NCBI GenBank assembly: GCA_041946735.1
Contig: JBHGAY010000015.1
Span: 32,001-96,000, forward strand
Reading direction: 5' to 3'
DNA length: 64,000 nucleotides
From: Candidatus Eiseniibacteriota bacterium
GTDB taxonomy: Bacteria > Eisenbacteria > RBG-16-71-46 > CAIMUX01 > VGJL01
Made by a program: the position numbers and the translations under genes. Of the stretch, positions 6,017 through 51,567 are shown piece after piece (positions within the stretch are counted from its first letter, which is position 1; each line of letters begins with the position of its first letter). The notes under the pieces are model-generated. The model was not told the DNA's origin, did not search any database, and saw nothing but the letters and a program-made list of their open reading frames with translations.

Positions 6017-6024
6017 AGCCGTAG

Positions 6025-7205: not shown

Positions 7206-7230
7206 ATGGCCGACGCCAGCAGGCCCGGAA

Positions 7231-8104: not shown

Positions 8105-8133
8105 TCCGAAAACCTCTTTCAAAGGCTAGAAAC

Positions 8134-9963: not shown

Positions 9964-10282
9964 GACGGGCTGCCGGGCCGCCGCTCGGATATGCCCGTCT
10001 GACCTTCCGCCCGAACCGCCGCTGCACTGATCGCGCCGTCGATTCGAGGAGTGCCGGCCGCACCCTCCTCCCCGCGCCTTGCGGCGTCTCTCCCTCCTCC
10101 CTGCGCTTCCGACGTCTCTTCCTCATCCGTGTCCCGAATCCGTCCACCGCACATCCGCCGGACGTTCGTCCCCCAAGCTCGCGAAAGTGATAGAATTCAC
10201 CGAACGCAAACGCACCCGAGGCCGCTCCGCATCCGGCCTCCTGCGCACCTGCGAGCTTCCACCCTCAGCCGGGAGGTTCTCG

Positions 10283-35323: not shown

Positions 35324-35637
35324 CGTTCTATCCTCCTCGCCCGGGCGACACCGGCGCGTTTGCTTCGGCCTCTCGGTGGCGGGTCTTCCTGGCCCGGCAC
35401 CCGTCGCCGGCCGGCCATTTTCTTTCGAAGTCCGTGTATGTACCTTCATTCGCTTCACAAGGTCCCGGGATTTTCCCCTTCCTTCTGCAAGATGGGGGCC
35501 AGGATGGCGCGGGGCCGCGAGCGGTAGCGGTGTGCTGCCCCATCCGGGTATCTTGGTGCCGGATCGACGGATCGGAGAGGACCGCGGCGGGATGACGATT
35601 GCATGAAGGTCCCACAGGTACAGGGCGGGAGGGTCGA

Positions 35638-36042
35638 ATGTACACAGTCACACGGAAGCACTCCTTTTCCTACGGCCACCGCCTGCGCGAACACCCGGGC
35701 AACTGCTCGCGCTTGCACGGGCACAATGGTGTCCTCTTCGTCACGGTCGGCTCCGACGCGCTCGACGGCGGCGGGATGGTCGTCGACTTCCACGAGATCA
35801 AGCGAACGGTCGCGCGATGGGTCGACGACACGCTCGACCATCGCCTCGTACTGCAGCGTGGCGATCCGGCGGCTGCTCTTCTCCAGGAGGCTGGCGAGGA
35901 GATCCGGGTGGTCGACTTCGAACCCACCGCGGAGAACCTGGCCCGTCACGTCTACGAGGCTCTGACGGCGCTCGGCCTGCCGGTCCGCGAGATCGTGTTC
36001 GAGGAGACGGAGAACTGCCGCGCCTGCTACCGCCCGGGCTGA
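35638..36042 (+). CDS. queD: 6-carboxy-5,6,7,8-tetrahydropterin synthase
   Basis: FSYGHRL, CSRLHGHN, GMVVDF, LDH, PTAENLA, ETEN. Confidence 0.9.
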   Translation: MYTVTRKHSFSYGHRLREHPGNCSRLHGHNGVLFVTVGSDALDGGGMVVDFHEIKRTVARWVDDTLDHRLVLQRGDPAAALLQEAGEEIRVVDFEPTAENLARHVYEALTALGLPVREIVFEETENCRACYRPG

Positions 36043-37517
36043 GCCGACCCGGCCGCGGCCGGCGGAGGTGCGGCGCGCAAGGCGGGGATGCGGGAGGCGA
36101 ACCAACCGGCGCCGACCAGGCAAGCGATGCCGCCGAGCCGGACCGACCAGGGCGCGCCGAAGTGCTGCGCGACGAACCCCGCGAGGAACGAGCCGATCGG
36201 AGCGACGCCGACCAGCGTGAAGCTGTAGATGCTCAGCACCCGCCCGCGGATGGCGTCGGGACTGACCCGCTGCAGGTAAGTGTTGGTCGTGGCGAGCTGC
36301 GTGATCATCGCGCCGCCGGTCAAGACCAGGATCACCAGACTGAGCGCGAAGACCCGGGAGAAGGAGAGCAGGATCAGGCTCGTCCCGAACAGGCCGAGGC
36401 CGATCGTGATCAGCCGGGCCGACCCGCGCGTGCTGCTGCGCGCCGCGAGGCGCAGGGCGCTCGTCACCGCTCCCACTCCGAAGGCGCCCATCAGCAGCCC
36501 ATAGCCTCTCGCACCCTGGTGGAGGATCTCGTCTGCGAAGACCGGAAGCAGGATGGTGAACGACATTCCGAAGATGCTGCTGATCGCGACGGCGAGGAGA
36601 ACGGCGCGGACGCGGACCGTCCGCAAGACGAACGAGAATCCCTCGCTCAGCTCGTGAAGGACGGGCCGGTGGGGACGTGCCCGCGGCTTCTCGAGCCGCA
36701 TAGCGAGCAGGCCCGCGATCACGGGGAGGAAGGAAAGGCCGTTGACCAGGAAGCAGACCGCCTCGCCGGTCGCCGCGATCACGAGCCCCGCGACTGCGGG
36801 CCCGACCACGCGGGCGGCGTTGAAGACCGAGGAGTTGAGAGCGATGGCGTTGAAGAGGTCGTCCTCCCCGACCATCTCGATCACGAACGCTTGGCGGGCT
36901 GGCATGTCGAAGGCATTGACGATCCCCAGGCAGAAGGCGATGACCGCGACGTGATAGACGGTCACCACATCGGAGAAGGTGAGAGCTGAAAGGACGAGCG
37001 CCAGCGTCATCGCGGAGAACTGCGTGGCGACGAGCAGCCGGCGTTTCGGCACCCGGTCCGCGACGACCCCAGCCAAGAACGAGAAGAGGAAGACCGGCAG
37101 GAACGCGGCGGCGCCGACGATTCCTAGCCAGATCGGCTCGCTCGTCAGGCGATGGACGAGCCACCACTGGGCGGCCCCCTGCATCCATGTGCCGATCAGG
37201 GAAATGAGCTGCCCGAACCAGAAGAGGCGGAAATTGCGGTGGCGGAGCGCCCGGAACGTCGCGCGTGCGCCGGCCAGGAGCGGGCGCGGCGGCTCGGGCG
37301 TCGGAGCCGGAGCGGAAATCGGATTCGCCGGCGCGACCGCCGGCATGCGGACCGACCGTGAGACGTCGGCAGCCGAGTGCGAAGACGGCGACGGCGACGG
37401 TGATGGCGATGGCGAGGGTGACTGCAACGGTGACGGGGAGGGTGATGGCGACGGCGAGGTGCGGCCCGGCGCTTCGTTCCGTTCCCCGCCCCGCTGTCCC
37501 TTCCCGCCGTCCACCAT
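36027..37517 (-). CDS. MFS transporter with Ser/Pro-repeat N-terminal extension
   Basis: FRALRHRNFRLFWFGQLISLIGTWMQ, FDMPARQAF, NAIALNS; about 12 TM segments; start uncertain (37541/37517 or further downstream). Confidence 0.88.
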   Translation of the reverse strand: MVDGGKGQRGGERNEAPGRTSPSPSPSPSPLQSPSPSPSPSPSPSSHSAADVSRSVRMPAVAPANPISAPAPTPEPPRPLLAGARATFRALRHRNFRLFWFGQLISLIGTWMQGAAQWWLVHRLTSEPIWLGIVGAAAFLPVFLFSFLAGVVADRVPKRRLLVATQFSAMTLALVLSALTFSDVVTVYHVAVIAFCLGIVNAFDMPARQAFVIEMVGEDDLFNAIALNSSVFNAARVVGPAVAGLVIAATGEAVCFLVNGLSFLPVIAGLLAMRLEKPRARPHRPVLHELSEGFSFVLRTVRVRAVLLAVAISSIFGMSFTILLPVFADEILHQGARGYGLLMGAFGVGAVTSALRLAARSSTRGSARLITIGLGLFGTSLILLSFSRVFALSLVILVLTGGAMITQLATTNTYLQRVSPDAIRGRVLSIYSFTLVGVAPIGSFLAGFVAQHFGAPWSVRLGGIACLVGAGWFASRIPALRAAPPPAAAGSAQPGR

Positions 37518-37722
37518 GTTGTCCGCCGCCTCCCCACGCATGATGGGTGCATTGTAGCGGCATGGCCGGCGTCGATGGAGCGGCGAAGCAGTCGGATCCT
37601 GGGGCGGAGGAGGCGGATCCGCAGGCGGATCTGCTGGGGCGCCGGCGCAGGTGGGGAGAGGCGAGCGACGGCTCCGGGAAGGGGGTATGCTCGCCGCGGC
37701 GAGCACGAGGGAGGAAGGGAAC

Positions 37723-38940
37723 GTGGAGCGTCGGACGCGGGATTCCGAGGCGGGGGGCGGGGACGTCCGCCTGCAGGATGAGCAGATCGATCTCTCGACC
37801 CGAGAGGCGAGCGACGAGCAAGGCGGAGTTCGCGAGTTCCGGCGCCGCTTGCTCGCCTTCGGCTTCGGGATCGTGACCCTCTCGATCATCGCGCTGCTCG
37901 TCGCGATCTACCTTCAGCTCATCTACCAGCTCCTCTGGGGCGTGGCATTGGCCATCCTCTTCTATCCCCTGCATCGCAAGATCCTCCGGCTCGTGCACGG
38001 GAGGACTTCCCTGGCCGCGACGATCAGCACCGCGCTGTCGATCGCGATCGTGATCGTTCCGGCGGCGCTGCTCGTCTTCAACCTCGTCGCGGAAGTCCAG
38101 GACCTCTGGCCGCGGATCGAGAACGTCGTTGGCGACAACGCCTACCAGCAGGTTTCGGAATGGCTGGAGGACTCTCCGCTGCGCTCCGTGGTCCATTGGG
38201 CGCTCGGGCCCCAGGCGGGGACCGGCCCCGAAGTGCTCGAGGAAGAAGTGCGCAAGGCGGCGCTCTCGCTGCAGGTGTTCCTGCTCGAGCAACTGCGAAA
38301 GATCACGCGCTCCGTCCCGGCGTTTCTGATCAAGCTCGGCATCACTCTCGTCACCTTCTTCTTCTTCCTCAAGAACGGGCCGGGATGGTCGAAGCAGGCG
38401 CAGCGGGGGCTGCCGCTCGCCCAGGAGCACTCCGCGCGCCTCTTCCGGATCGCCGAGCAGACGATCAACGCCGTGTTCCGCGGAGTCGTCCTTACGGCGG
38501 CGACGCAGGCGGCGCTTGGCGGGCTCGGCTACTGGGTCGCGGGGGCGGAGGTGCCGATCCTCCTCGCCCTGGTCACCTTCATCGCCGCTCTGATCCCGTT
38601 CGTCGGTCCGGTCTTCGTCTGGCTCCCCGTCTCGATCGGGCTGCTCCTGACCGGCAAGACCTGGGCCGCGATCGGGCTCGCGGTCTGGGGAACGTGCGTC
38701 GTCAGCCTCGTCGACAACGTCCTGCGACCCTGGCTGATCGGCCGCGAGATCCAGCTGCCCTTGCTCTGGCTCTTCCTGGCGATCGTCGGCGGGCTCAAGC
38801 TCTTCGGATTCCTGGGCGTGCTCGTCGGGCCCGCCGCTCTCTCGCTCGCCGTCGCCTGCTTCCGGATCTACATGGAAGCGCGGCGCGAAGACCACCACGA
38901 GGAGCGCCAGCCGGCAGAGGAGAACCCCGCTGCCCCGTGA
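37723..38940 (+). CDS. AI-2E family transporter
   Basis: LIPFVG, VDNVLRPWLIG, GGLKLFGFLGVLVGP; start uncertain. Confidence 0.88.
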   Translation: MERRTRDSEAGGGDVRLQDEQIDLSTREASDEQGGVREFRRRLLAFGFGIVTLSIIALLVAIYLQLIYQLLWGVALAILFYPLHRKILRLVHGRTSLAATISTALSIAIVIVPAALLVFNLVAEVQDLWPRIENVVGDNAYQQVSEWLEDSPLRSVVHWALGPQAGTGPEVLEEEVRKAALSLQVFLLEQLRKITRSVPAFLIKLGITLVTFFFFLKNGPGWSKQAQRGLPLAQEHSARLFRIAEQTINAVFRGVVLTAATQAALGGLGYWVAGAEVPILLALVTFIAALIPFVGPVFVWLPVSIGLLLTGKTWAAIGLAVWGTCVVSLVDNVLRPWLIGREIQLPLLWLFLAIVGGLKLFGFLGVLVGPAALSLAVACFRIYMEARREDHHEERQPAEENPAAP

Positions 38941-39420: not shown

Positions 39421-39548
39421 GCTTCCGGCAACCTATCACGACCGGACGAGTAGCGCGCGCCCCGATCCCCATGCTAGGCTTCCGGGCTCGTTCGGGATCG
39501 GGACGGTCCGCCTCGGCACCACGATCCTCGGGCATGAGGAGGCGTGCT

Positions 39549-40130
39549 TTGAGCGATACGACTGCGACCGTCTACTTCTCCGTCGACGTGGAAGCTTCCG
39601 GGCCGCTCCCCCCCCAATACAACCTGGTCTCGATCGGCGCCGTCGAGGTCCGCGCGACGCCGGAAGGACACCAGCTGGGGCGCGAGTTCTACGTGGAGCT
39701 GAAGCCGATCTTCCCCGGATTCCGCGCCGAGTCGATGGCCGTGCACGGAATCCCGCGGGAGCGCCTCGAAGCCGAGGGGGTGGAGCCCCGTGAGGCGATG
39801 CGGCGCTTCGCCGATTGGGTCCGCGAAGGACTGGCCGCCGGCGAACGCCCGGTCTTCGTCGGCCACAACGCGGTCTTCGACTGGGCCTACATCAACTACT
39901 ACTTCCATCACTTCGAGATGGACAACGTCTTCGGCTACAAGGCGATCGACCAGAAGTCGCTCGCGATGGGAGTCCTGCGGATCCCGTGGTGGGACGCGCA
40001 GAAGGACATCCTCGTGCAAAAGCTTCCGGGTCTGTCCGGATTGAAGGAAGGGGAGCGGGCGCACGACGCGCTCGATGACGCCCGGTTCCAGGCCCGGATC
40101 CTCTGCGCTCTCCTCGATCACAGAGGATGA
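39549..40130 (+). CDS. DEDDh 3'-5' exonuclease
   Basis: SVDVEASG, GHNAVFDW, HDALDDA; TTG with GAGGAGG RBS. Confidence 0.88.
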   Translation: MSDTTATVYFSVDVEASGPLPPQYNLVSIGAVEVRATPEGHQLGREFYVELKPIFPGFRAESMAVHGIPRERLEAEGVEPREAMRRFADWVREGLAAGERPVFVGHNAVFDWAYINYYFHHFEMDNVFGYKAIDQKSLAMGVLRIPWWDAQKDILVQKLPGLSGLKEGERAHDALDDARFQARILCALLDHRG

Positions 40131-41095
40131 GCGGGGCCGATCGCGCGCACTCGATCCGCGACCGCTGGCCCGGCCGTCCCGCCGCCGCATCGCCTGCGGA
40201 GGGACCGCTTCTCGGGGCCCACATGTCGATCGCTGGCGGGATCCAGAACGCGATCCTGGCGGCCGCGCGCCATCGCTGTCGCGCGGTGCAGCTATTCAGC
40301 AAATCGTCGAACCAGTGGAAGGCGCGCATCCTCGCGGACGAGGACGTGGCCGCGTGGCGGGAGGCGATCGGGCGACATCCGATGATCCCGTTCGTCCACG
40401 ACTCCTACCTGATCAATCTGTCCTCGCCCGATCCGACACTGCGCAAGAAGTCGCGGGAGGCATTCGTGGAGGAGATCCGCCGCTGCGATCTTCTCGGGAT
40501 CCCGTGGCTGATCTTCCATCCGGGCGTCGCCATGGGCGCCAGGGAGACGGTGGGCTGCGACCGGGTAGCGGCGAGCCTCGACTGGGTCGCCGACCGGCGC
40601 CCCGACTCGCGCACCGGGCTGCTCCTCGAAACGACGGCGGGGCAGGGAAGCTGCCTGGGACATCGATTCGAGCACCTCGCCCGCATCCTGGACCGGGCGC
40701 GCTGTCGCGAGCGGCTCGGCGTCTGCATCGACACGGCGCACATCCACGCGGCCGGCTACGACATCCGCACCGAGGAGGCGTACCGGACGACGTTCGAGGA
40801 GTTCGACCGGATCGTCGGAATCGAGCGGATCCGGGCGTTCCACGTCAACGACTCGAAGCGGGAGCTGGGGAGCCGCGTCGACCGGCACGAGCACATCGGC
40901 CGGGGCAAGATCGGCTCGCGTGCCTTCGGGTCCCTCATGCGGGATCCGCGCTTCCGTGACGTGCCGAAGATCCTCGAGACGCCGAAGGAGGGGAACATGG
41001 ATCGCTGGAACCTGGCGCTGCTGCGCCGGCTCTCACGGAATGCGGCGATCGCGTCTTCCCCGGAGCGGCGCGGAAGCGCGCCAGCGGCGAATTGA
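40127..41095 (+). CDS. nfo: Endonuclease IV (AP endonuclease)
   Basis: LGAHMSIAGG, HDSYLINL, FHPG, LETTAGQG, CIDTAH, HVNDSK, DRHEHIG, LETP. Confidence 0.95.
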   Translation: MSGADRAHSIRDRWPGRPAAASPAEGPLLGAHMSIAGGIQNAILAAARHRCRAVQLFSKSSNQWKARILADEDVAAWREAIGRHPMIPFVHDSYLINLSSPDPTLRKKSREAFVEEIRRCDLLGIPWLIFHPGVAMGARETVGCDRVAASLDWVADRRPDSRTGLLLETTAGQGSCLGHRFEHLARILDRARCRERLGVCIDTAHIHAAGYDIRTEEAYRTTFEEFDRIVGIERIRAFHVNDSKRELGSRVDRHEHIGRGKIGSRAFGSLMRDPRFRDVPKILETPKEGNMDRWNLALLRRLSRNAAIASSPERRGSAPAAN

Positions 41096-41224
41096 GCCGA
41101 CCAGCCGGGATCGCACCGGTCCGGCCGGAGACCGCCGCCGACTGTGCCGCGGAGTCGCGCTCGAGCGGCATCCAGCAAGCTGCGGCCGGGGGGCTCTGAT
41201 AGACTGGGCGAGGAAGGAGAACCG

Positions 41225-41839
41225 ATGACCCGTTTCGCCCGGATCCTGTCGCTGGCCGCTCTCGTCCTGCTCCTGGCTTCGGCCTTCTCCACGCTCTCCC
41301 GCGCTCAGCAGGAAGGGCCCAAGCTGCCTCCCGAGAAGGAGGCGGTGGCGCAGAAGATCTTCAACGAGCTCATCTCTCCCTGCTGCTGGACGACCACCGT
41401 CGCGCAACACGGCTCCGGGGCGGCGCCGAAGATCCAGGCCGAGGTGCGGCAGATGCTGGCCTCGGGCATGACGCACGACGCGATCATCGACCGGTACGTG
41501 AAGGAGTACGGGGAACGCATCCTCGCCAAGCCCGAGCGGAGCGGCCTGAACCTCGTCGTCTACTGGATCCCGTACCTCGCGCTGGTCGGTGGGGTGGCCG
41601 CGATCTGGGTGGCGTTCCGCCGCCGGCGCGGCCGTGAAGGCGGACGTCCCGCCCTCGCGCGCGTCGACAGGACGGGGGAGCGACAGGCGCCGATCGAGAA
41701 GCGCGGGCGCCCGCCCGTCGCCATCCGGCCGTCGCCGTCCGCGTCCTCACCGACGCCGTCACCGTCGCCTGCGCCCGTTCCAGGAACCGAGGAGGACTAC
41801 CGAAGGCGTCTCGAGGAAGAGGTGCGCCGCATCTCCTGA
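41225..41839 (+). CDS. CcmH/NrfF-like cytochrome c biogenesis protein
   Basis: Signal peptide, ELISPCCW, EVRQML...IIDRYVKEYGERILAKP, C-terminal TM helix. Confidence 0.8.
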   Translation: MTRFARILSLAALVLLLASAFSTLSRAQQEGPKLPPEKEAVAQKIFNELISPCCWTTTVAQHGSGAAPKIQAEVRQMLASGMTHDAIIDRYVKEYGERILAKPERSGLNLVVYWIPYLALVGGVAAIWVAFRRRRGREGGRPALARVDRTGERQAPIEKRGRPPVAIRPSPSASSPTPSPSPAPVPGTEEDYRRRLEEEVRRIS

Positions 41840-41846
41840 GACCGGC

Positions 41847-41882
41847 CGAAAGCGAAAACGGAAGCGGAAGCGAAAGCGGAAA
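41847..41882. repeat. Hexamer microsatellite CGRAAR x6
   Basis: cgaaag cgaaaa cggaag cggaag cgaaag cggaaa. Confidence 0.7.
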
Positions 41883-41883
41883 A

Positions 41884-41913
41884 GCTGCCGGGAGGGTCGA
41901 CCTTCCCGGCAGC
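41884..41913. terminator. Hairpin terminator between the CcmH-like gene and sodB
   Basis: GCTGCCGGGAGG-gtcga-CCTTCCCGGCAGC; upstream A-run gives a U-tract on the minus strand. Confidence 0.7.
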
Positions 41914-41925
41914 CTTCCTTCGTCG

Positions 41926-41998
41926 AGCGGGCCGCGTCTAGCGGGCCGCGTCTACCTCTAGTGGGCCGCGTCCACGTGCATCGAGCGGACCGCGTCTA
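41926..41998. repeat. Four copies of AGCGGGCCGCGTCTA at the sodB 3' end
   Basis: Copies at 41926, 41940, 41960 and 41984; the last contains the sodB stop codon. Confidence 0.75.
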
Positions 41999-42598
41999 CT
42001 TCGCGAGATTCTCGTTTGCGAAGTCCCAGTTCAGCAGATTCTCGATCGTCGCCGCGACGAAGTCCTTCCGCCGGTTCTGGTAGTCCAGGTAGTAGGCGTG
42101 CTCCCAGACGTCGGTCGTCAGGATCGGCTTCAGGTTCATGTGCAGGGGATTCTCGGCGTTGCTCGTCGTGACGATGGAAAGCTTTCCGCCGTCGAGGACG
42201 ACCCACGCCCAGCCGCTGCCGAACTGGGCAACCGCCGCGTCCACGAACTTCCCCTGGAACGTCTCGTAGCTGCCGAACGCCTCCTCGATCTTCTTCGCGA
42301 TCTCGCCGGAGGGGCGTCCGCCCCCCTTCGGCCGCATACAGCTCCAGTAGAAAGTGTGGTTCCACGCCTGGGCCGCATTGTTGAAGATCCCCTTCTTCGA
42401 AGCGTCTCCGTGCGTCTTGCGGATGATCTCCTCGAGCTTCGCATCGGCGAGCGGCGAGCCCGACACGAGCTCGTTGAGCTTGTCGACGTACGCCTTGTGA
42501 TGCTTGCCATGGTGGAAGCGGAGCGTGTTCGCCGAGATCGTCGGCTCGAGGTCGGTCTCGGCATACGGCAGGGGCGGAAGCGTGAACGGCTGGCTCAT
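41996..42598 (-). CDS. sodB: Fe-type superoxide dismutase
   Basis: HHGKHH, NNAAQAWNH, FGSGWAW, DVWEHAYY; AAQ pattern typical of Fe-SOD. Confidence 0.93.
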   Translation of the reverse strand: MSQPFTLPPLPYAETDLEPTISANTLRFHHGKHHKAYVDKLNELVSGSPLADAKLEEIIRKTHGDASKKGIFNNAAQAWNHTFYWSCMRPKGGGRPSGEIAKKIEEAFGSYETFQGKFVDAAVAQFGSGWAWVVLDGGKLSIVTTSNAENPLHMNLKPILTTDVWEHAYYLDYQNRRKDFVAATIENLLNWDFANENLAK

Positions 42599-42904
42599 GG
42601 CTTTCCTTTCCTCCAACGTCGATGGGGACGCCTGGTCTCATGCCAGGGAATGATCCGTATCGGCGGCGACGGGTGGACGGGTGGTGGTTGTCAGCTCTGC
42701 ATCGGATCGAGGATGCGGCCCGCCGCCGCCGCCGTTCAAGTGGTATCTCGACGATTTCCGTTCGGTCGGCGTCCCCTGCCGCCGTCCCTTACCTCGCGGC
42801 GGGACAGAGAAGGGCGGCCGGCGCGCGATACGCCGAGCCGCCCGTCTCTCGATCGAATGTTCGCCTGACAACGCGCGCCGGCTTTCGGTTGCGGCGCGTC
42901 CGCC

Positions 42905-44155
42905 TTACCTCTGCGCCATCGGAATGTACGGCGACGAGATCGGTCCCACGTACACCGCCCGCGGCCGGAAGATGCGGTTGTCCTGCAAGTACTCGAGCGA
43001 CCGCGCGGTCCATCCCGCGACTCGGCTCACCGCGAAGATCGGGGTGAACATGGCGGTCTCGATCTCCATCGCTCGATAGATCAATCCGGAATAGAAGTCC
43101 ACGTTCGGGAAGATCTTCTTCTCGCCGAGCTGGCCGCAGAGGAGGGAGTCGAGCTTCTCGGCGACCTGATAGAGGCGCTTCACCTCCGGATTGCGGTCGG
43201 CGAGCAGCCGGGCGATCGGACCGAAGATCCGGGCGCGTGGATCGTACGCCTTGTAGACGCGGTGCCCGAATCCCATGACGCGCCGCTTCGACTCCATCGC
43301 CTTGCGGAACCAGGGTTCCACGTTCTCCGGAGTCCCGATCTCCTCGAGATCGTAGAGAACCCGTTCGTTCGCGCCGCCGTGGAGTGGGCCCTTCAGGCTC
43401 GCGATCCCTGCCACGACGCTCCCGTACATGTCGGAGAGCGAGGAGTTCACGACCATCGTCGCGAAGGTCGAGGCGTTCATCCCGTGGTCCGCGTGAAGGA
43501 TCAGGGAGATGTCCATCGTCCTCTCGATGACCGGATCGGGCTTCTGCCCGGTCATCATCCACAGCAGGTTGCCGGCGTGGCTCAGGGTCGGATCGGGCGG
43601 GAGCGGCTCCTTCCCTTTGCGGATGCGGGCGATCGCGCCGGTGATCGTCGCGAGTTGCGCGATCATCCGGATCGCGATCTGCTGCTCGTATTCGACCGAC
43701 GTGTCGTCCGCGCGTGGGTCGAGGTTGCCTTCGACGGAGGCGCAGGTGCGCAGCGTGGACATCGGGTGGGCCTTGGCGGTCGGCACGATCTCGAGAATCT
43801 TCTTCGCCTCGGGCGCCATCGGCGCCGCCGCCCGGATCTTGGCGACGAAGCCGTCGAGCTCCACCTTCGTCGGAAGGTGGCCGTACAGGAGCAGGAAGGC
43901 GGTCTCCTCGTAGGTGGAGTATTCCGCGAGGTCGAAGATGTTGATGCCCCGATAGACGAGCCATCCCTTCGCCCCGTTGACGTAGCCGACCTCGGTGTCG
44001 CAAGCCGGCGCCCCCTCGAGCCCCTTGCCGATCTTCGCGTCGATCGGCCATTCGTGAGCGCCGGTGCGCTGCGGCTCGGGCTCGTCGCTCGTCTCCTGGA
44101 GCGCCTTCTCCTTCGCCGCCCTCACCAGTTCCTGAAGGTCATGCGTGCTCGTCAT
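42905..44155 (-). CDS. Citrate synthase / 2-methylcitrate synthase family
   Basis: KGLEG, YRG, HADHGMNAST, GPLHGGANE, MGFGHRVYK, PNVDFYSG, IFRPRAVY. Confidence 0.93.
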   Translation of the reverse strand: MTSTHDLQELVRAAKEKALQETSDEPEPQRTGAHEWPIDAKIGKGLEGAPACDTEVGYVNGAKGWLVYRGINIFDLAEYSTYEETAFLLLYGHLPTKVELDGFVAKIRAAAPMAPEAKKILEIVPTAKAHPMSTLRTCASVEGNLDPRADDTSVEYEQQIAIRMIAQLATITGAIARIRKGKEPLPPDPTLSHAGNLLWMMTGQKPDPVIERTMDISLILHADHGMNASTFATMVVNSSLSDMYGSVVAGIASLKGPLHGGANERVLYDLEEIGTPENVEPWFRKAMESKRRVMGFGHRVYKAYDPRARIFGPIARLLADRNPEVKRLYQVAEKLDSLLCGQLGEKKIFPNVDFYSGLIYRAMEIETAMFTPIFAVSRVAGWTARSLEYLQDNRIFRPRAVYVGPISSPYIPMAQR

Positions 44156-44283
44156 CGGGTCCTTCCTCGCAACGGGCGGCGCGCGCCGCCCGGCATCAGG
44201 GTCTTTCGGCCGACTCCTACGAACGGGAGGATCACCTATACTCCGCTCCTGGGTAGTGCCGCGACCCCGAGGACGGAGGACCA

Positions 44284-47200
44284 TTGGAGAAGCCGCCGAC
44301 ACCGACCGTCGCCCACCAGGTGACGGATGCGGCTCGGGACCTGGCCCATGCCTTTCGGGACACCGCCAGTCGCAACCGAACGCTCGAGGATACCATTCCG
44401 GAACGCGTGATCGCAGCCGTCGTGGAGACGGCCTCGGCGCATGCGCGGCTGCCGTCCGGGGCCGAGGAGGCGGAAGTTCGCAGCCTCCTGCTCGACCTCC
44501 TCGAGGCCGGCCGCACCCCAGCCTTTCTCCGCCGGATCGCCGGCACCCCGCTCGCCGACCGCTGGCTCGAAGCGGTGCTCGGCGCCCTCGACGCGGCCGC
44601 CATCTCCCTCGGGGATCTCCTGCAGCAGCGGGCGGCCCGGACGCCCGACCGCACCTGGATCCGGGTGCCGCGCGCCAACGGTTGGGACGACGTGACCTGG
44701 GGGGAGGCCGAGGAGCGCGTCGCCGCGATCGCCCGCGGCCTGCGCGAGGAGCTGCCCGAACGGCCGGGCGCGGTCCATGTCGCAATCCTCGCCCCGAACC
44801 GCCTGGAGACGATCCTCGCCGACGTGGCCTGCCTGACGCACGGAATCGTCGACGTGCCGATCTCGTCGGACTCCACGCCCGATCAGGTGCGCTTCATCCT
44901 CGAGCAGACCGCCCCTCCGATCCTCCTCGTGTCCGATCGAGCGCGGCTCGATGCGGTGCTTTCGGCCGGACCGCTGCCGGCGGTGCGGACCGTCCTCTTG
45001 ATGGACGAGCCGGAGGGGGACCCTCCGGTGGAGCATTGGCTGCTGCTCCGCGAGATCGAGGAGCGGGGAAGGAGCCTGGGGAGGCTTCCGCTCCCCCGGA
45101 TCGCGCCGCGCGCCCTCGCCACGCTGCTCTATACCTCCGGCACGACCGGGCAGCCGAAGGGCATCCGCTTCTCGCAGCGCAACATCGTCTACAAGCGCTT
45201 CTGCAGGGCGGTCGCGATTCCGGAGATCGGCGAGGACGACACCTTCCTTTGCTACCTGCCGCTGTTCCACACATTCGGCCGATGGCTCGAGATGACCGGG
45301 ACGCTCTTCTGGGGAGCGACCTACGCGATGATGGAGAATCCGTCGGTCGAGACAATGCTGGCGCGGATGGCGCTCGCGCGCCCGACCGTCTTCATCTCGA
45401 TCCCGAAGCGCTGGATCCAGCTTCACGAGCGGATCATCCAAGTCGCGGGCGGCACGATGGAGGAACGCGAGGAGATTCCCGCGGCGCGCCTGGACGACGC
45501 CACCGAGGCTGTCACCGGCGGCCGCCTCCGGTGGGGGCTATCGGCCGCCGGACATCTCGACACGGAGGTCTTCCTCTTCTTCCAGAAGCGGGGGATCGAG
45601 CTTCTGAGCGGCTTCGGGATGACCGAGGCGACCGGGGGAATCACGATGACCCCTCCGGGGCAGTATCGCCGCGGCACCGTCGGAAAGGCCCTCCCGGGAA
45701 TCGAGGTGCGGCGAGCGGAGGACGGCGAGCTGCTCGTGCGGGGTCCCTACCTGATGCTCGGCTACAACGACCCGGACGCCGGAGATCGCGACTACGAGGC
45801 GGATTGGTTCGCGACCGGCGACATCGTGCGCGAGGACGAAGACGGCTATTACACGATCGTCGACCGCAAGAAGGACATCTACAAGAACGTCAAGGGACAG
45901 ACGATCGCGCCGCAGAGGATCGAGAACCTTTTCGATGAGTTCGAGGAGGTGAAGCGCAGCTTCCTGGTCGGCGACGGGCGGGAGTACAACACGCTCCTGC
46001 TCTATCCGGACTACGAGGCGGCCGGCGGCAAGCTGAAGCGCATGAGCGCGGAGGATCTGCGGGAGTACCTCTCCTCCTTCGTCGTCTCCGTCAATCGCTT
46101 CCTCGCCCCGTACGAGCGCGTGGTTGCCTTCGACCTCCTCCCCCGCTACTTCCGCGAGGACCGCGGCGAGCTGACACCGAAAGGGACGTTCGTCCGGAAG
46201 GTCGTCGAGAAGAGCTTCTCCGAGCTGATCGAGTCGCTCTACGCGCGGCCGTACGTGACCGTGACGACGCAGGGGATCGACGTGCGCGTGCCGAGCTGGC
46301 TGCTTCGCGAGAAGGGCCTCACGCCGGATTCGGTCAGCGCGGAACCGGGCGGGATTCGCCTGCGCCCGGGCGGAGAGCGGCTGACCATCGCGCGCATTCC
46401 CGGCGCTCCGGGGCGCTATCGCGTCGGGACCTTCACCTACCGGATGGAGAGCGAGGAGCGCGCGGCGGCGCCGCTCGCCGCTCCGCTCGTCGACCTCGAC
46501 CGCATCCTGGCGATCGCCTCGCTCTGGGCCGGCAACCTCGAGCTGTCCCGCTTCGTCGGGGAAGGAAGGCCGAGGCGGCCGCGCACGGCGCAAGGCGGCG
46601 GCCCGCGGATCTCGATCGAGGGATGGCACCGGCCGACCCTCCTGGTCGACTTCGCGCGCGAGACGCTGGGGCGCGCCCGCGCGAAGGGAGCCACCGGGGC
46701 TGCCCTCGTCCACGCGCTGGCCGGCGCGCTGTTCGCGACGCAGGGCTCGGACGCGCTCGATGCGCTCGCCTCCTTGCGCAAGCTCCTGCAGGATCCCGCG
46801 GCAGAGGAGGCTGCGCTCGCCCGCGCGATCCTCCCGTTGCTTCGGACCCATCCGGATGCGGCCGTCCGCTCGGCGGCTCTCGCGATCCTGCTGCCCGGCG
46901 AGGTGGACGAGCGCGCCGCCGAGACGCTCGCGAGCTTCCTCGAAGTCGATGCGGACGTCTTCTCGCCCGAAGTGCGCGCGCGCGCGCTCGAGCACGAGAT
47001 CACTCCGGCCGCCCTGCGATCGATCCTCCGCCTCGGCGCGTCCCTCGAAGTCCCGGCCGGACAGCCTTGGGCGGCCGGCCCCGCCCGGCGCCGGATCGAG
47101 TCCATCCTTCGCTTCTGTGTGGAGACGGCCGAGCAGTTGCCTCGCTGGTATGCGATCGTCCGACAGCTCCTGGCGGGCCGCTCCATGCAGGAGCGCGACG

Positions 47201-49047
47201 CGGACGTCCGCGCGCTCGCCCTCTCGCTGCGCGAGCGGCTCGACGAGCGTTTCCGGTCCTGGATCGAGTGGGGACGAACGAGCCCGACCGATCCGGAGAC
47301 CGGCAAGCCGATCGGCTGGGATCGCGTCCTCGGCTTCGACGAGCGAGTGGAACCCGAGGTGCGGGAGCGCCTCCGCGACGCGCTCGCCGAGACCACCCTT
47401 CTGCGCGAGTCGATCTTCCTGCTCGCGGACGGAACGCTCCTCTCCGGCGGCGATCTCCTTCCGGGGGGGATTTGGGTGAGCCACCTCGGAGCCGGCCACG
47501 GAAAGACGGTCGTCCGTCTCATCGTGTCGACGCGAGGCGGCCGGACGCACGAGTTCGTCGTCAAGATCCTGCGCGAGATCCGACCCGAGGAGGCGCGCGA
47601 GGAAGCGGACTGGCTGATCCGGCTCGGCTCGTTCGATCGAGCCGTCCGGCTCGTCGCCGATTTCGGAGGCTATTGGCCGGAGCGCGGGATCTGGTCCGAG
47701 GAGTACATCAGCGGCGAGACGGTGCGGAACAACCTCACGCGGATCGCGGCGCATCCTGACGAGGAGCGGCGGCAACGCCTGTCGAGCAGCTGGCCGCACG
47801 TCGCCTGGTCGGCCCTGGCGACGTTCGTCGAGTTCTGGCAGCGGACGGGGCGCAAGCTGATCCTTGCCGAGCCGACGCCGGAGAACATCGTCGTCGCCCC
47901 GCACGACTACCAGGAAGGCTCGCGCCTCGTCTCGATCACCTCCCGCCTGCCGTTCCAGGGGATCGCGTCGATGCTGCGCCGCCAGCACGAGACGTTCCTC
48001 GATCCGGTGCATGCGCAGTTCCCGGAGCTCGCCTCGGGGGCGCCGCGCCGCACGAGCTTTTCCGCCTTCCTGGAAGCGGTCGGGGAGACGACCGGCTTGG
48101 CGCTGCTCTGGCGCGCGCTTGGCGAGATGAAGGAGAAGCTGCTCGCCGGAGACCCGTCCTGGCAGCCCTGGTCGGACGATCTGCGTGCTTTCCTCGACGA
48201 GGTCGAGCAGGAGGGATTCGCGCCACGCCGCCTCGTGATGGCGGTGCGCCGCTACCATCTCTGGGCGGGGCTCAACGCCGGGGCGTCGCTCCAGGCGCGC
48301 GCGATGACCCTGCAGGAGGTCTACGAGACCTACGGCCTGCCGGAGCTGGAGAAGACCCGTCCGGAGATGCGCATCCGCTTCTTCCGCCGCACCGTTTTCG
48401 CTGGCGCGCGGGCTCCACTTGCTCGGGAGCTGGACGCATTGATCCGTGCGCACCGCGACACGCCGCTCAAGCTCGAGGCGCTTCTCCGCCGGATGGCGAT
48501 CCTCCATCGCTCCATCCAGCTCGACGACGAGGAGGCGTACTTCCTCGCCCGGATGACCTACGCGCACCTGGACGTGCTGCAGGACGCCCACCTGGAGCTG
48601 CTCGAGGAGGGCGGGGAGATCCGCGCGGAACTGGTCGAAGAGTTCCGCGACGAGACCGGCGACCTGCTACGAATAAGGCCGGCTGCCAGCCCGAAGGAGC
48701 TGATCCGCCTCCATCACCTCTTCGAGCAGTCGGGCCTCTCCGTCGTCTTCCGGCCGGAACACCGCTTCCTGGTTGCCGTCGACGAGCAGGATCTGACCGT
48801 CGGCGGGCTCTTCTACCGCCCGGCCGTCCCGGGCGTCGTCCACATGGAGAAGATCGTCGTGGGACCGCGGCGCCGGGGGAAGGGGCTGGGCGAGCGGCTC
48901 ATGCGCTCGTTCCTGCAACGGCTGCGGGACACGGGGCAGCGCCGTGTCACCACCGGATTCTTCCGGCCCCACTTCTTCTATCAGTTCGGCTTCCGCCTCG
49001 AGCGGGGCTTTGCCGGCCTGGTCAAGGACCTCGAGGAGGAGTCGTAG
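44284..49047 (+). CDS. Multidomain protein: long-chain acyl-CoA synthetase + helical region + kinase-like domain + GNAT
   Basis: YTSGTTGQPKG, GFGMTE, WFATGD, DRKKD; GAGHGKT..VVK..EEYISGET..EPTPENIVV; RRRGKGLG and FFYQFGF. Confidence 0.85.
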   Translation: MEKPPTPTVAHQVTDAARDLAHAFRDTASRNRTLEDTIPERVIAAVVETASAHARLPSGAEEAEVRSLLLDLLEAGRTPAFLRRIAGTPLADRWLEAVLGALDAAAISLGDLLQQRAARTPDRTWIRVPRANGWDDVTWGEAEERVAAIARGLREELPERPGAVHVAILAPNRLETILADVACLTHGIVDVPISSDSTPDQVRFILEQTAPPILLVSDRARLDAVLSAGPLPAVRTVLLMDEPEGDPPVEHWLLLREIEERGRSLGRLPLPRIAPRALATLLYTSGTTGQPKGIRFSQRNIVYKRFCRAVAIPEIGEDDTFLCYLPLFHTFGRWLEMTGTLFWGATYAMMENPSVETMLARMALARPTVFISIPKRWIQLHERIIQVAGGTMEEREEIPAARLDDATEAVTGGRLRWGLSAAGHLDTEVFLFFQKRGIELLSGFGMTEATGGITMTPPGQYRRGTVGKALPGIEVRRAEDGELLVRGPYLMLGYNDPDAGDRDYEADWFATGDIVREDEDGYYTIVDRKKDIYKNVKGQTIAPQRIENLFDEFEEVKRSFLVGDGREYNTLLLYPDYEAAGGKLKRMSAEDLREYLSSFVVSVNRFLAPYERVVAFDLLPRYFREDRGELTPKGTFVRKVVEKSFSELIESLYARPYVTVTTQGIDVRVPSWLLREKGLTPDSVSAEPGGIRLRPGGERLTIARIPGAPGRYRVGTFTYRMESEERAAAPLAAPLVDLDRILAIASLWAGNLELSRFVGEGRPRRPRTAQGGGPRISIEGWHRPTLLVDFARETLGRARAKGATGAALVHALAGALFATQGSDALDALASLRKLLQDPAAEEAALARAILPLLRTHPDAAVRSAALAILLPGEVDERAAETLASFLEVDADVFSPEVRARALEHEITPAALRSILRLGASLEVPAGQPWAAGPARRRIESILRFCVETAEQLPRWYAIVRQLLAGRSMQERDADVRALALSLRERLDERFRSWIEWGRTSPTDPETGKPIGWDRVLGFDERVEPEVRERLRDALAETTLLRESIFLLADGTLLSGGDLLPGGIWVSHLGAGHGKTVVRLIVSTRGGRTHEFVVKILREIRPEEAREEADWLIRLGSFDRAVRLVADFGGYWPERGIWSEEYISGETVRNNLTRIAAHPDEERRQRLSSSWPHVAWSALATFVEFWQRTGRKLILAEPTPENIVVAPHDYQEGSRLVSITSRLPFQGIASMLRRQHETFLDPVHAQFPELASGAPRRTSFSAFLEAVGETTGLALLWRALGEMKEKLLAGDPSWQPWSDDLRAFLDEVEQEGFAPRRLVMAVRRYHLWAGLNAGASLQARAMTLQEVYETYGLPELEKTRPEMRIRFFRRTVFAGARAPLARELDALIRAHRDTPLKLEALLRRMAILHRSIQLDDEEAYFLARMTYAHLDVLQDAHLELLEEGGEIRAELVEEFRDETGDLLRIRPAASPKELIRLHHLFEQSGLSVVFRPEHRFLVAVDEQDLTVGGLFYRPAVPGVVHMEKIVVGPRRRGKGLGERLMRSFLQRLRDTGQRRVTTGFFRPHFFYQFGFRLERGFAGLVKDLEEES

Positions 49048-49110
49048 CCGACGCGACGCTGGGCGGCACGGCGCGCCGCTGGGGCAGCGCCGTGCAATGT
49101 ATGCCTGCAC

Positions 49111-49162
49111 AAGGGCGGCGGGATCGCGCCCGAGGCCTCGCCCTCGGGACCGGCGCGCGCCT
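49111..49162 (+). repeat. 52-bp element, exact reverse complement of 54309-54360
   Basis: aagggcggcgggatcgcgcccgaggcctcgccctcgggaccggcgcgcgcct. Confidence 0.9.
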
Positions 49163-50318
49163 ACGTCAGGAACATTGGGAGGCCGAGGACGCTCGACATC
49201 CGCGGCCGGTAGGCTTGGACGTCGTAGTAGGCGCCGACGTCGACCTTCCTTTTGCCGGATACGGCGGTCGCGACCGGCACGACCGTGTAGCAGCCGCGCT
49301 GGAGGGCGACCATCTCCCCGCGGTGTCCGTCGCGCAGGCGGTCGTAAGCTAGATTGCCGAAGTTCGTGCCTACGAGGCGGTCGGTCGAGTCGGGCGGGCC
49401 GGAGCGCATCAAGTAGGCGAGCCGCTGCACGAGGGTCTGCCGCCCCGTGATCCTCTCGATCTCCGCTCCGACGAGGTCACCGATGCCGCCCAGCTTGCGG
49501 TGCCCGTACGCATCGGGCTCGCCGCTCAGGACGCGGTCGCCTCCCTCGATCGTCGCGCCCTCGCTGATCACGAGGATCGCGTAGTGGCTCGGGTTCGCAT
49601 CCTGGTCCTGCGCGAGCAATCCCGCGAGGCGGCCGATGTCGCACGGGACCTCAGAGATGACCGTCCTGTCCGCGCTTCCGAGGTAGCCGGTGAAGAGCGC
49701 AGTCTCGCCGCAATAGCGGCCGAACAGCTCGATCACCGCGATGCGCTCGTGGGAACCGGCGGGCGTGCGCAGGGAGATCAGGAAGTCGACGCTGCGCGTC
49801 ACGGCCGTCGAGAAGCCGATGCAGTAGTCCGTGCCCGGGACGTCGTTGTCCATCGTCTTCGGGATCGCGAGGACGGGAAATCCTTCCTTGTCGAGCCGGA
49901 CCGCGTAGGAAAGGGTGTCGTCCCCGCCGATCGCCACGATCGCGTCGAGGCGAAGAGTCTCGAGGACGCGCAGGACGTGCGGAGTGAGGTCGACCTTCGC
50001 GTCGCCGCCGGCGCCGCCCGTGATCATCGAGCGGAGATGCGCCGGCACCTCGCTTCGCTTGACGGCGGCGGGGTTCGTGCGGGAAGTGTGCAGGAAGGTG
50101 CCGCCATGGCGATCGACGGTGCGCACGCGCTCGCGGGTCAAGGGGATCACGGAGGTGCCGTTGGGCTTCTCCGGGTCGATCTCGAGCAGGCCGCCCCATC
50201 CCCGTCGGATCCCGAGCATCTCGTGGCCGTCGTCGACTGCCCGGAGCGTGAACGCGCGAATGGCGGAGTTGAGCCCCGGAACGTCCCCTCCACCCGTCAA
50301 GATCCCGATCCTCTTCAT
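49161..50318 (-). CDS. pfkA: Phosphofructokinase (PfkA family, PPi-type signature)
   Basis: IGILTGGGDVPGLN, GGTFLHTSR, GGDDT, PKTMDND, GFSTA. Confidence 0.9.
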   Translation of the reverse strand: MKRIGILTGGGDVPGLNSAIRAFTLRAVDDGHEMLGIRRGWGGLLEIDPEKPNGTSVIPLTRERVRTVDRHGGTFLHTSRTNPAAVKRSEVPAHLRSMITGGAGGDAKVDLTPHVLRVLETLRLDAIVAIGGDDTLSYAVRLDKEGFPVLAIPKTMDNDVPGTDYCIGFSTAVTRSVDFLISLRTPAGSHERIAVIELFGRYCGETALFTGYLGSADRTVISEVPCDIGRLAGLLAQDQDANPSHYAILVISEGATIEGGDRVLSGEPDAYGHRKLGGIGDLVGAEIERITGRQTLVQRLAYLMRSGPPDSTDRLVGTNFGNLAYDRLRDGHRGEMVALQRGCYTVVPVATAVSGKRKVDVGAYYDVQAYRPRMSSVLGLPMFLT

Positions 50319-50418
50319 CCCGAAGCTTCCTCCCTGCGCGATCGCCCTCGCGACCGCCGGCCCGTTCTGTCGGTCTCCTTGCCGTGCTCGTGCTGTCTCG
50401 TGCTCGTCCTGCGCCGTT

Positions 50419-51369
50419 TCAGGCCGGCGCCGGCGAGCCGGCCGCCTCGATGACTTCGAGGCCCGGCGCGTCCGTCGCGGAGAGGCGCGCAATCGCGCCA
50501 ACCGGCAGCGGATGAAAACTCGGCTCGTGCCCGTACGCCAGACCGGCAACCGCCGGAACGCCGATCCGCTTGGCGTGATCGAGCAGGACGTCCCGCACCA
50601 CGCTCGCCGGCAGCGTCTCGCCTCGCGGCCGGCAGTCGGTGAACTGCCCGAAGACGAGCCCGGCGACGCCGCCCAGCGCGCCGGAGAGGCGGAGCTGCGT
50701 GAGCATCCGGTCGATCCTCTGCGGCGTCTCGTCGATCTCTTCGAGGACGAGAATCGTCCCGGCCAGCGATGGAAGATAGCCGGTCCCGACCATCGAGACG
50801 AGAAGCGAGAGATTCACGGGGAGCAGCGGCCCGCGGGCTTCTCCGGGGATCCACGCCTCCAACTGATCCGCGGCGATCGACCCGATCGGCGTCGTGCCGC
50901 AGAGGAGCCGCCGCGTCTCCTCCATCACCGGTTCCGGCGGGTCCTCGACGCCGCCAAGATCGGTCGCGACCATCGGCCCCGAGACGCCCACCCACGCGTA
51001 CCTTCCCCAAAACCGGAGATGGAGGGCCGTGATGTCGCTGCGCCCGACGAGCCATACCGGGGGAAGGCGATCCGGGAGCGAGTCGAGATAGGGAAGCAGG
51101 CGAAGCGCCCCCACGCCCCCGCGGCCAGCGAAGATCGCGCCGATCGAGCGGTCGCACAGGAGTTGGTGCAGCTCGCCCGCTCGCTCCTCATCCGTCCCTG
51201 CCCAGATGCCCGCGCCAGCCCTGCAGGACTCTCCCACGGCGATCTCCCATCCCATGGCGCGAAGCCGCGCGACGCCGCGCTCGAGCCGCACGGGATCCGG
51301 GGGACTCGAAGGGCATGTGACAGCGACGCGTGTTCCGGGAAGGAGGATCGGCGGGCGCTGGCTTCGCAT
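50419..51369 (-). CDS. ldcA: LD-carboxypeptidase (S66 family)
   Basis: GTDEERAGEL, RGGVGALRLL, GRSDITAL, LEEIDE..IDRMLTQL, YGH. Confidence 0.88.
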   Translation of the reverse strand: MRSQRPPILLPGTRVAVTCPSSPPDPVRLERGVARLRAMGWEIAVGESCRAGAGIWAGTDEERAGELHQLLCDRSIGAIFAGRGGVGALRLLPYLDSLPDRLPPVWLVGRSDITALHLRFWGRYAWVGVSGPMVATDLGGVEDPPEPVMEETRRLLCGTTPIGSIAADQLEAWIPGEARGPLLPVNLSLLVSMVGTGYLPSLAGTILVLEEIDETPQRIDRMLTQLRLSGALGGVAGLVFGQFTDCRPRGETLPASVVRDVLLDHAKRIGVPAVAGLAYGHEPSFHPLPVGAIARLSATDAPGLEVIEAAGSPAPA

Positions 51370-51567
51370 GGCCGCAGGGTAGCACCGGGCTTACCCGCAC
51401 GCGAGATCGCTACGTGCAATTCGCCGCAGGCGGCACGATGAACGTCATGAAACAGACCGGCGGGAGCCGGCAGCGTACCATGGCATCAATAGGGTGGATC
51501 TGAAGAGGGGCTGCAAGCCGGGAGCGACCGCCTCCCCCCGACGTCGTGGATCGCCGAGCCCGGTTTC

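Follow-up and report, generated by a model that had tools for sequence, protein, structure and literature searches.

What is the function of a bacterial protein that joins an acyl-coenzyme A (acyl-CoA) ligase, a kinase-like domain and a GNAT acyltransferase in one chain? Such a protein, referred to here as the giant enzyme, is encoded on contig JBHGAY010000015.1 of a Candidatus Eiseniibacteriota bacterium. The 64,000 nucleotides analyzed (positions 32,001 to 96,000 of the contig) are called the window, and all coordinates are counted from its first letter. An initial annotation made from the sequence alone had divided the protein into a ligase, a helical region, a kinase-like segment and a GNAT, and this four-part anatomy proved correct. 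We tentatively prefer to read the protein as a self-supplying protein acyltransferase, which would make or use acyl-CoA and acylate an amine, probably a protein lysine, at the junction of acetyl-CoA and citrate; we rate this reading at somewhat less than an even chance.

The giant gene is a single intact reading frame

The giant gene in the window is real and intact. Its frame runs without interruption from a TTG codon at 44284 to the stop codon at 49045-49047. All motifs quoted in the initial annotation were located in the translated protein: GAGHGKT at residues 1069-1075, VVK at 1092-1094, EAREE at 1103-1107, EEYISGET at 1139-1146, LAEPTPENIVV at 1194-1204 and RRRGKGLG at 1529-1536. The concern that separate genes had been wrongly merged by assembly or annotation is refuted, and we leave it practically no chance. 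No stop codon interrupts the frame, the architecture recurs in 22 clusters and 74 long representatives of related proteins, and contigs from an independent sequencing run of another study (X2) match the window with 0-1 differences. These contigs span the junction between ligase and middle region (44712-46657) as well as that between middle region and GNAT (47883-48772). Joints seen in sequencing-run data were not taken as real; their sides measured 20-24 letters and came from reads of relatives at 90% likeness.

The database entry for the window gene (P0002) has 1546 residues, 41 fewer than the TTG frame, a length that implies a start at GTG 44407. Starting there would truncate the conserved N-terminal PExV(I/V)AAL motif, and close relatives align with the window protein from residue 3-13 on. 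Moreover, a GGAGGA sequence (44272-44277) is located four bases 5′ of TTG 44284. Because of the N-terminal homology to the four closest loci (L024-L027), the PExV(I/V)AAL motif and the GGAGGA sequence, we prefer the TTG codon, which suggests that the start call in P0002 is too short.

Both catalytic ends carry conserved active-site motifs

The proposal of an AMP-forming acyl-CoA ligase in the N-terminal part was supported by matches of residues 113-655 to Pfam PF00501 and PF23562, both above their cut-offs. ANL ligases are characterized by a (T/S)SG(T/S)TGxPKG P-loop, the motifs GxTE, TGD and DRxKD and a C-terminal catalytic lysine. In the window protein all core motifs are present, namely YTSGTTGQPKG (the P-loop, residues 283-293 in the AMP-binding domain), GFGMTEATGG, TGD, DRKKD and K633 (46180-46182), the putative catalytic A10 lysine. 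Conservation was assessed by aligning the window protein with 105 database proteins that are 1400 residues or longer and 26-60% identical to it, shorter proteins being left out; all counts out of 106 refer to this full-length set. Conservation reaches 80-95% or more for the motifs TSGtTGxPKG, LPLxHTFGR, SGFGMTEATGG, TGD and DRxKxIYKN, 103/106 for K633 and 106/106 for R638.

The nearest NCBIfam models were FadD11 (E 3e-58) and those of long-chain-fatty-acid-CoA ligases, and the closest solved sequence to residues 101-660 was the adenylation domain of a carboxylic acid reductase (CAR; 5mso_A, E 2.8e-29). The ACSL, FadD11 and FadD15 ligases and the CAR adenylation domain are the best sequence matches of the window ligase, and Pfam AMP-binding_C_3 matches as well. 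The window protein differs from them by ligase scores far below every equivalog cut-off, by a 112-residue N-terminal extension and by approximately 930 additional residues of C-terminal domains. Elsewhere in the genome a canonical acetyl-CoA synthetase is encoded (TIGR02188 (Acs), 962 bits), whose model does not match the giant protein. Its presence weakens the idea that the giant protein is the acetate-activating enzyme of the cell.

At the C-terminus, the predicted GNAT with its RRRGKGLG sequence was recovered both by Pfam (PF00583, above cut-off) and as a GNAT fold in the structure model. Comparison with VIA-align matched it to E. coli YhbS (4rs2_B; Z 16.4, root-mean-square deviation (rmsd) 2.2, 135 residues aligned). 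The GCN5/PCAF protein acetyltransferases matched at Z ~15, within ~1 Z of YhbS, and N-acetylglutamate synthases at Z 13.6-15.1. Motif A (residues 1529-1536) is conserved at R/K/Q1531 (91/106), G1534 (92/106) and G/S/A1536 (101/106). On the preceding strand, position 1522, E in the window protein, is acidic in 101/106 sequences (E 60, D 41). Judged by these residues, both catalytic ends, ligase and GNAT, look functional.

The middle region contains a kinase fold with degenerate catalytic positions

For the segment described as kinase-like, residues 1000-1432 were modeled alone (17 sequences), with a predicted local distance difference test score (pLDDT) of 90.6 and a predicted template modeling score (pTM) of 0.88. 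The kinase-domain model was compared with 48,161 PDB representatives without the Foldseek prefilter. All 50 matches listed were protein-kinase-like folds, at Z 9.4-12.2. Bud32 was the best VIA-align match (4ww5_A; Z 12.2, rmsd 4.0, 216 of 236 residues aligned, model range 23-296), followed by homoserine kinase, YtaA/CotS, methylthioribose kinase, Rio1, aminoglycoside kinases and eukaryotic protein kinases, with scores that reach down to Z 9.4. Foldseek itself returned 403 matches at E<=0.001, and those listed were all kinases. With kinase folds throughout the matches listed, the objection that the segment might not adopt such a fold no longer stands. As far as the predicted structure goes, the protein-kinase-like fold of the middle segment is real.

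The canonical catalytic positions of this fold are poorly kept. The HRD and DFG equivalents were placed by spacing and by the predicted strands rather than by superposing individual residues. At the HRD aspartate the window protein has E, and D is found in 28/106; where the DFG aspartate would be expected, 87/106 have Ser (S1217). The lysine of VVK on strand β3 (K1094) is K in 12/106, the αC glutamate E1107 is E in 46/106, and the glycine-rich segment is variable across the 106 proteins. As stated in the initial annotation, no DFG follows the catalytic-loop-like segment of the window protein. Conserved instead are R1078 (95/106), N1201 (78/106), D1208 within HDYQEG (94/106), W1170 and W1185. 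A Pfam search of residues 973-1272 gave no match at E<=10. By standard criteria, applied here to aligned sequences, the domain is a pseudokinase, and the degeneracy across the full-length proteins agrees with the label first given to it.

Could the domain still be catalytic? As an active atypical kinase or nucleotide-transferring enzyme, with R1078 (second strand), N1201 and D1208 as candidate residues, it would bring the activities of the protein to three. In atypical kinases such as WNK and SelO the catalytic residues have been relocated, and the conservation of the three candidates and of S1217 would fit such a case. However, β3 lysine, αC glutamate, catalytic aspartate and glycine-rich loop are all variable, D1208 is placed in a turn between two predicted strands and not at the DFG position, and no Pfam kinase family was reached even at E 10. 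We regard an active kinase as very unlikely.

Bud32/PRPK, RIO and the APH/CotS/homoserine-kinase-type enzymes have the same bilobal fold (Rio1, Z 11.1; homoserine kinase 2ppq, Z 11.3). In contrast to this structural likeness, the window domain is without detectable sequence relationship to them, and their lysine, catalytic aspartate and metal-binding aspartate are not conserved in the window family. A GNAT and a kinase-fold domain in one chain are also found in AAC(6′)-Ie-APH(2″)-Ia, whose APH domain (4ork_A) matches the kinase-like domain at Z 9.9. In that enzyme both domains act on the same small molecule, a ligase is absent and the domain order is reversed relative to the window protein.

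A small-molecule acceptor has to be considered for the giant enzyme as well. The GNAT might use ligase-made acyl-CoA to N-acylate an amino acid or amine, yielding an N-acyl metabolite or lipid, with the kinase-like domain binding the acceptor. Such an amide synthase would account for the fusion of a long-chain-type ligase to an acyl-CoA user, and it is in line with the N-acetylglutamate synthases among the GNAT matches and with the homoserine, methylthioribose, aminoglycoside and antibiotic kinases that follow Bud32 within ~1 Z (Z 10-11.3). We nevertheless think it quite unlikely, as no other biosynthetic or export gene is conserved alongside the giant gene, the conserved neighbor is a housekeeping citrate synthase, and the catalytic residues of small-molecule kinases are not conserved.

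Between ligase and kinase-like domain, the AlphaFold2 model of residues 661-1587 (23 sequences; mean pLDDT 88.1, pTM 0.77) contains a beta-rich domain (661-781) and twelve helices (785-996), followed by a strand-rich lobe and helices (~1010-1432) and the GNAT. Residues P670, W672, W748, G750 and N751 of the beta-rich domain are invariant in the alignment. The helical region had been called HEAT-like; its all-helical nature is borne out by the twelve helices, whereas the HEAT assignment is not, since no Pfam HEAT family matched residues 661-1039 at E<=10. Solenoid-like is therefore the most that can be said. At E<=10, Pfam gave only a chance match to DUF6356 in the middle region and PDB sequences gave no match to residues 661-1479, and the best ESM Atlas score for residues 661-1000 (0.76) was below lead level. 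A PI3K-like arrangement of helical domain plus kinase, raised by VPS34 rows in Foldseek, was set aside (rmsd 16-18 Å, TM score 0.19-0.31).

In three genomes of the same taxonomic order (G001, G002 and G004; loci L011, L012, L014 and L020-L023), the middle region matched in two or three pieces, which lie within one open frame of 1614-1710 residues. The split is explained by long insertions in the beta and solenoid part. Insertions were also seen in columns 50-100, 155-190 and 350-380 of a 17-row alignment of the middle region.

The giant gene is usually a neighbor of citrate synthase across lineages

The divergent citrate synthase gene was found at 42905-44155 (-), as expected from the initial annotation. 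The genome (94.8% complete) gave no other PF00285 match, and the enzyme is presumably the housekeeping one for that reason. The association is conserved far beyond the window genome. We collected 37 related loci from one-genome-per-species contigs with two peptide patterns derived from 13 closer rows, a sample and not a census. Nineteen of the 37 contain a citrate synthase gene, and so do 18 of the 22 loci whose upstream flank reaches 6 kb or more. Fourteen other loci without the gene have less than 6 kb of upstream flank, mostly less than 3 kb.

Across these loci citrate synthase occurs in two non-orthologous types and four arrangements. A type II enzyme, 61-80% identical to that of the window, is encoded divergently upstream in the window, L025, L026, L027, L032, L046, L050 and L053. 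The other type, a 'eukaryotic-like' citrate (Si)-synthase (NF007128/TIGR01793) that is 27-32% identical to the window enzyme, lies immediately upstream in the same orientation in L030, L035, L045, L054, L057, L058 and L059, divergently in L024, and in four Acidobacteriota loci 2-5.5 kb downstream. From 33 rows of the middle region a quick maximum-likelihood tree was built, L042 and L044 being left out because of stops in their straight translation. It placed L024 inside a five-row clade together with the window and three type II loci (100% in the Shimodaira-Hasegawa-like approximate likelihood-ratio test, SH-aLRT), which indicates that the type of citrate synthase was exchanged while its position was kept. 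Citrate synthase adjacency is present in all five main clades of this tree.

This adjacency could also mean that the ligase activates citrate or another acid of the tricarboxylic acid (TCA) cycle, for example to citryl-CoA, and is paired with citrate synthase working in the direction of cleavage. Family-specific basic residues just after the P-loop (KRFxRA) would suit an acid of this kind. By every sequence comparison, however, the ligase is of the long-chain ACSL/FadD/CAR kind, the conserved GNAT would be left unexplained, and the neighboring citrate synthase is the only one found in the genome and presumably serves housekeeping. Citrate activation is in our view highly improbable.

In all seven Myxococcota loci (L043, L049, L051, L055, L056, L057 and L058) a gene for homocitrate synthase, another acetyl-CoA-condensing enzyme, follows directly downstream on the same strand. 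It starts a few tens of bases past the stop codon of the giant gene, and one of the seven copies is cut by a contig end. The copies of L051 (458 bits) and L057 (450 bits) exceed the TIGR02146 cut-off of 413.55, and the other five are 78-94% identical to that of L051. As these loci are close kin, they count as one event. In L057 and L058 the giant gene is situated between citrate synthase upstream and homocitrate synthase downstream, and in L057 an aconitase gene precedes citrate synthase.

The activity of E. coli citrate synthase is altered by lysine acetylation, as reported in the accessible part of a review (PMC11254643, citing Venkat et al. 2019), which makes citrate synthase a plausible acylation target. 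A modeled complex of residues 1000-1587 with residues 25-416 of citrate synthase gave an ipSAE of 0.00 in two runs, a value that speaks neither for nor against binding.

A proposed self-supplying acyltransferase and its alternatives

From the anatomy, the folds, the motif pattern and the gene neighborhood we infer how the two ends may cooperate. The giant gene would give rise to one cytoplasmic multi-domain enzyme. Its N-terminal ACSL/FadD-type ligase would activate a carboxylic acid with ATP to an acyl-CoA, from which the C-terminal GCN5-like GNAT would transfer the acyl group onto an amine, most likely a protein lysine. The block of ~770 residues comprising beta domain, solenoid and pseudokinase would hold both catalytic ends together and may also bind a partner or metabolite. 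Citrate synthase or the catalytic lysine of the ligase itself would be the likeliest targets. The interpretation given in the initial annotation is partly supported: anatomy, kinase-like fold, conserved fusion and citrate synthase linkage hold up, and transfer in cis and gating by the pseudokinase would be hypothetical.

Several points weigh against this proposal. None of the NCBIfam equivalog cut-offs was reached by the ligase (best FadD11, 197.6 bits versus 950), so that the acid substrate is not assignable, and with a canonical Acs in the genome the giant protein is not needed for acetate activation. The fold of the GNAT cannot tell a protein from a small-molecule acceptor, since N-acetylglutamate synthases score alike. 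The sequence around K633, GELTPKG, is unlike the PxxxxGK context of known Pat substrates. The spacing-based placement of the HRD and DFG positions belongs here as well. Finally, gene neighborhood is correlative, and four of the 22 loci with sufficient upstream flank (L038, L047, L051 and L060) are without citrate synthase.

The enzyme may instead regulate itself. When acyl-CoA builds up, the tethered GNAT would acylate the A10 lysine K633 of its own ligase, and a deacylase would reset the enzyme. The Pat/AcuA-Acs feedback loop would have its counterpart within a single chain, and AMP-forming ligases are described as classic GNAT substrates in the part of the review at hand (PMC11254643). A stable AcuA-AcsA complex is known, as far as the available text of a second paper goes (PMC11255334). 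K633 is almost invariant, the S. lividans Pat GNAT with the C-terminal domain of Acs (4u5y_A) was among the Foldseek matches, and the window genome contains a sirtuin gene. On the other hand, ~770 conserved scaffold residues would be superfluous for simple feedback in cis, the K633 motif does not resemble that of known Pat substrates, and self-regulation by itself does not account for the linkage to citrate synthase. Taken together, we consider it doubtful, though worth keeping in view.

A more far-reaching form of the self-supplying acyltransferase is conceivable. The family might represent a new class of protein acyltransferases that make their own donor and directly control citrate synthase (in Myxococcota, homocitrate synthase), with the pseudokinase scaffold docking the target or reading a metabolite. 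It would then act as a covalent switch at the entry of the TCA cycle, conserved in Eisenbacteria, Ignavibacteria, Calditrichota, Marinimicrobia, Acidobacteriota and Myxococcota. We judge this extended version to be unlikely.

The giant enzyme is a new variant among multi-domain GNAT acyltransferases

In bacteria, enzymatic regulatory acetylation of lysines is carried out mainly by multi-domain GNATs that sense acyl-CoA. To our knowledge, the multi-domain GNAT types described so far carry an inactive NDP (nucleoside diphosphate)-forming synthetase-like domain, a small effector domain or nothing in addition. The window family swaps the inactive synthetase-like domain for an apparently working AMP-forming ligase, as its conserved motifs suggest, and adds a kinase-shaped scaffold.

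Pat/PatZ (YfiQ) of Salmonella and E. coli and PatA of Streptomyces lividans are likewise large multi-domain proteins that combine a GNAT with an acyl-CoA-synthetase-related domain, and both they and the window family are linked to the control of acyl-CoA metabolism. The large domain of Pat is of the NDP-forming type and inactive, whereas that of the window protein is AMP-forming (ANL) and retains every core motif; the class of enzyme that Pat usually modifies is thus the very domain fused in the window protein. Pat is also without the kinase-like domain found here. According to the accessible part of the review, Pat-type GNATs acetylate the catalytic lysine of AMP-forming ligases, and class I type I/II enzymes are defined by a size above 80 kDa, one GNAT and an NDP-forming acyl-CoA-synthetase-like domain (PMC11254643). 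The window protein has the size and the GNAT but not the defining NDP-forming domain, and the 8 Pfam families listed at E<=1 for its full length include none of that type. The architecture of ligase, pseudokinase and GNAT is absent from the five types set out in the same part of the review (PMC11254643).

AcuA of Bacillus subtilis is a GNAT that binds and modifies an AMP-forming ligase, AcsA, as described in the available text on this complex (PMC11255334). AcuA and AcsA are separate small proteins without a scaffold, and AcsA is an acetyl-CoA synthetase while the window ligase is of the ACSL/FadD/CAR type. The window family is a new variant among multi-domain GNAT acyltransferases. A search of the open full-text literature, which does not cover subscription journals, returned no paper describing the ligase-pseudokinase-GNAT architecture.

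The giant gene stays with citrate synthase through changes of gene order and through replacement of the citrate synthase type. If this link is functional, it would point to an unknown step of control or supply at the acetyl-CoA/citrate junction in several poorly studied phyla, and to a bacterial example of a pseudokinase serving as enzyme scaffold.

The family is large and spans at least six lineages

By word-indexed search, 22 further clusters were recovered that agree with the window protein in length and Pfam content. A profile of the middle region alone was run against 1.84 billion representatives. It yielded 553 proteins at E<=0.001, 248 of them at E<=1e-30, each representing a cluster at 50% identity. 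Among the best 150 of the 553 matches, 74 have at least 1400 residues, with the middle region at ~640-1430. The N-termini printed for 19 of the 76 shorter matches and for P0002 all start within the ligase domain (20/20), so that the shorter matches look like fragments or mis-called starts. A search among proteins below 872 residues gave 9 matches, 7 of which are on contigs of 1-5.5 kb. The other two are on longer contigs, P0107 on one of 11,169 bases and P0310 on one of 109,769 bases, and may come from genes that are split or carry a frameshift.

By source name or record title, members belong to Candidatus Eisenbacteria, Ignavibacteriaceae, Melioribacteraceae, Calditrichota, Marinimicrobia, several Acidobacteriota lineages and Anaeromyxobacter-type Myxococcota. 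The family is large and uncharacterized and spans at least six named lineages. A Melioribacteraceae query alone gave 530 clusters at 90% identity, and one marine cluster is present on 200 contigs. In the phylum of the window, 19 of 206 genomes had a match, one of them a weak frame of 306 residues, and all belong to one class. The window genome contains one copy of the giant gene.

Eisenbacteria hold two distant clades of the family, one with L030, L033, L035, L036 and L045 and the other with the window, L024-L027, L032, L046 and L053. In the quick tree the former clusters with copies from Acidobacteriota (96% SH-aLRT). An ancient duplication followed by loss, or a transfer from one phylum to another, could account for this. 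Straight translation of the matched stretch runs into 3 stops in L042 (8001-10377) and 6 in L044 (8001-10381), and the giant gene of L042 appears as two overlapping open reading frames (ORFs; 5952-9398 and 9007-10692). The stops may be due to a frameshift, an assembly error or a gapped match.

Features of the locus and other neighboring genes

The features of the giant gene and its immediate surroundings are compiled in Table 1.

Table 1. Coordinates of the giant gene, its domains and the adjacent features in the window.
Feature	Residues	Position	Strand	Basis or remark
Citrate synthase, type II		42905..44155	-	TIGR01800, 437 bits; divergent from giant gene
Divergent intergenic region, 128 bp		44156..44283	.	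Between citrate synthase and giant gene; carries TATACT box
Giant-enzyme gene		44284..49047	+	Single open frame, 1587 codons from TTG plus stop
N-terminal extension	1-112	44284..44619	+	No family assigned; partly conserved among relatives (alignment)
ANL ligase, large N-terminal subdomain	113-494	44620..45765	+	Pfam AMP-binding PF00501, 219.2 bits (cut-off 29.9), E 1e-64
ANL ligase, C-terminal subdomain	536-655	45889..46248	+	Pfam AMP-binding_C_3 PF23562, 44.5 bits (cut-off 20.8)
Small beta-rich domain	661-781	46264..46626	+	Secondary structure of AlphaFold model; no known family
All-helical solenoid-like region	785-996	46636..47271	+	12 helices in model
Protein-kinase-like fold	~1022-1295	47347..48168	+	VIA-align, Bud32; degenerate at canonical catalytic positions
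Helical extension after kinase-like core	1296-1432	48169..48579	+	Secondary structure of model
GNAT acyltransferase	1434-1587	48583..49044	+	Pfam Acetyltransf_1 PF00583 at residues 1480-1570, 35.4 bits (cut-off 20.7)
Phosphofructokinase ORF		49161..50549	-	Pfam PF00365, 224.4 bits; convergent with giant gene

In the divergent intergenic region a TATACT box (44237-44242) is located ~40 nucleotides 5′ of the TTG codon and aligns with TATA(C/A)T in the corresponding regions of L025, L026 and L027. It may be a -10 element. A consensus promoter scan reported 0 promoter-like sites and did not flag this box. The only terminator-like site of a terminator scan lies within the citrate synthase gene and was not above shuffled sequences, and Rfam gave no match in 41500-51500 at E<=0.1.

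The initial annotation had also read the convergent phosphofructokinase gene as a hint at central-carbon control. The neighbor itself is there, but as a hint it carries little weight, because it is conserved only in the four closest loci: among the 37 loci, phosphofructokinase and LD-carboxypeptidase follow the giant gene only in L024-L027, as they do in the window. The neighbors phosphofructokinase, LD-carboxypeptidase, ADP-glucose pyrophosphorylase, histidine kinase, aconitase and 2-oxoacid:ferredoxin oxidoreductase are all lineage-specific. In two Acidobacteriota loci without adjacent citrate synthase, an ordinary AMP-binding ligase (PF00501 and PF13193) is encoded upstream (L047, 2210-4612; L060, 3059-4735), and the giant gene is followed by genes for a HAMP histidine kinase and a sigma-54 response regulator.

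Farther upstream in the window, an ORF of 1147 codons (35455-38898, -) went unmatched in Pfam at E<=0.001. As further long ORFs overlap it in this DNA of 69% G+C, it may be a shadow frame. The region 39471-42641 encodes an RNase T-like exonuclease, a xylose-isomerase-like TIM barrel protein, CcmH and an Fe/Mn superoxide dismutase (41996-42616, -), which are unrelated housekeeping types.

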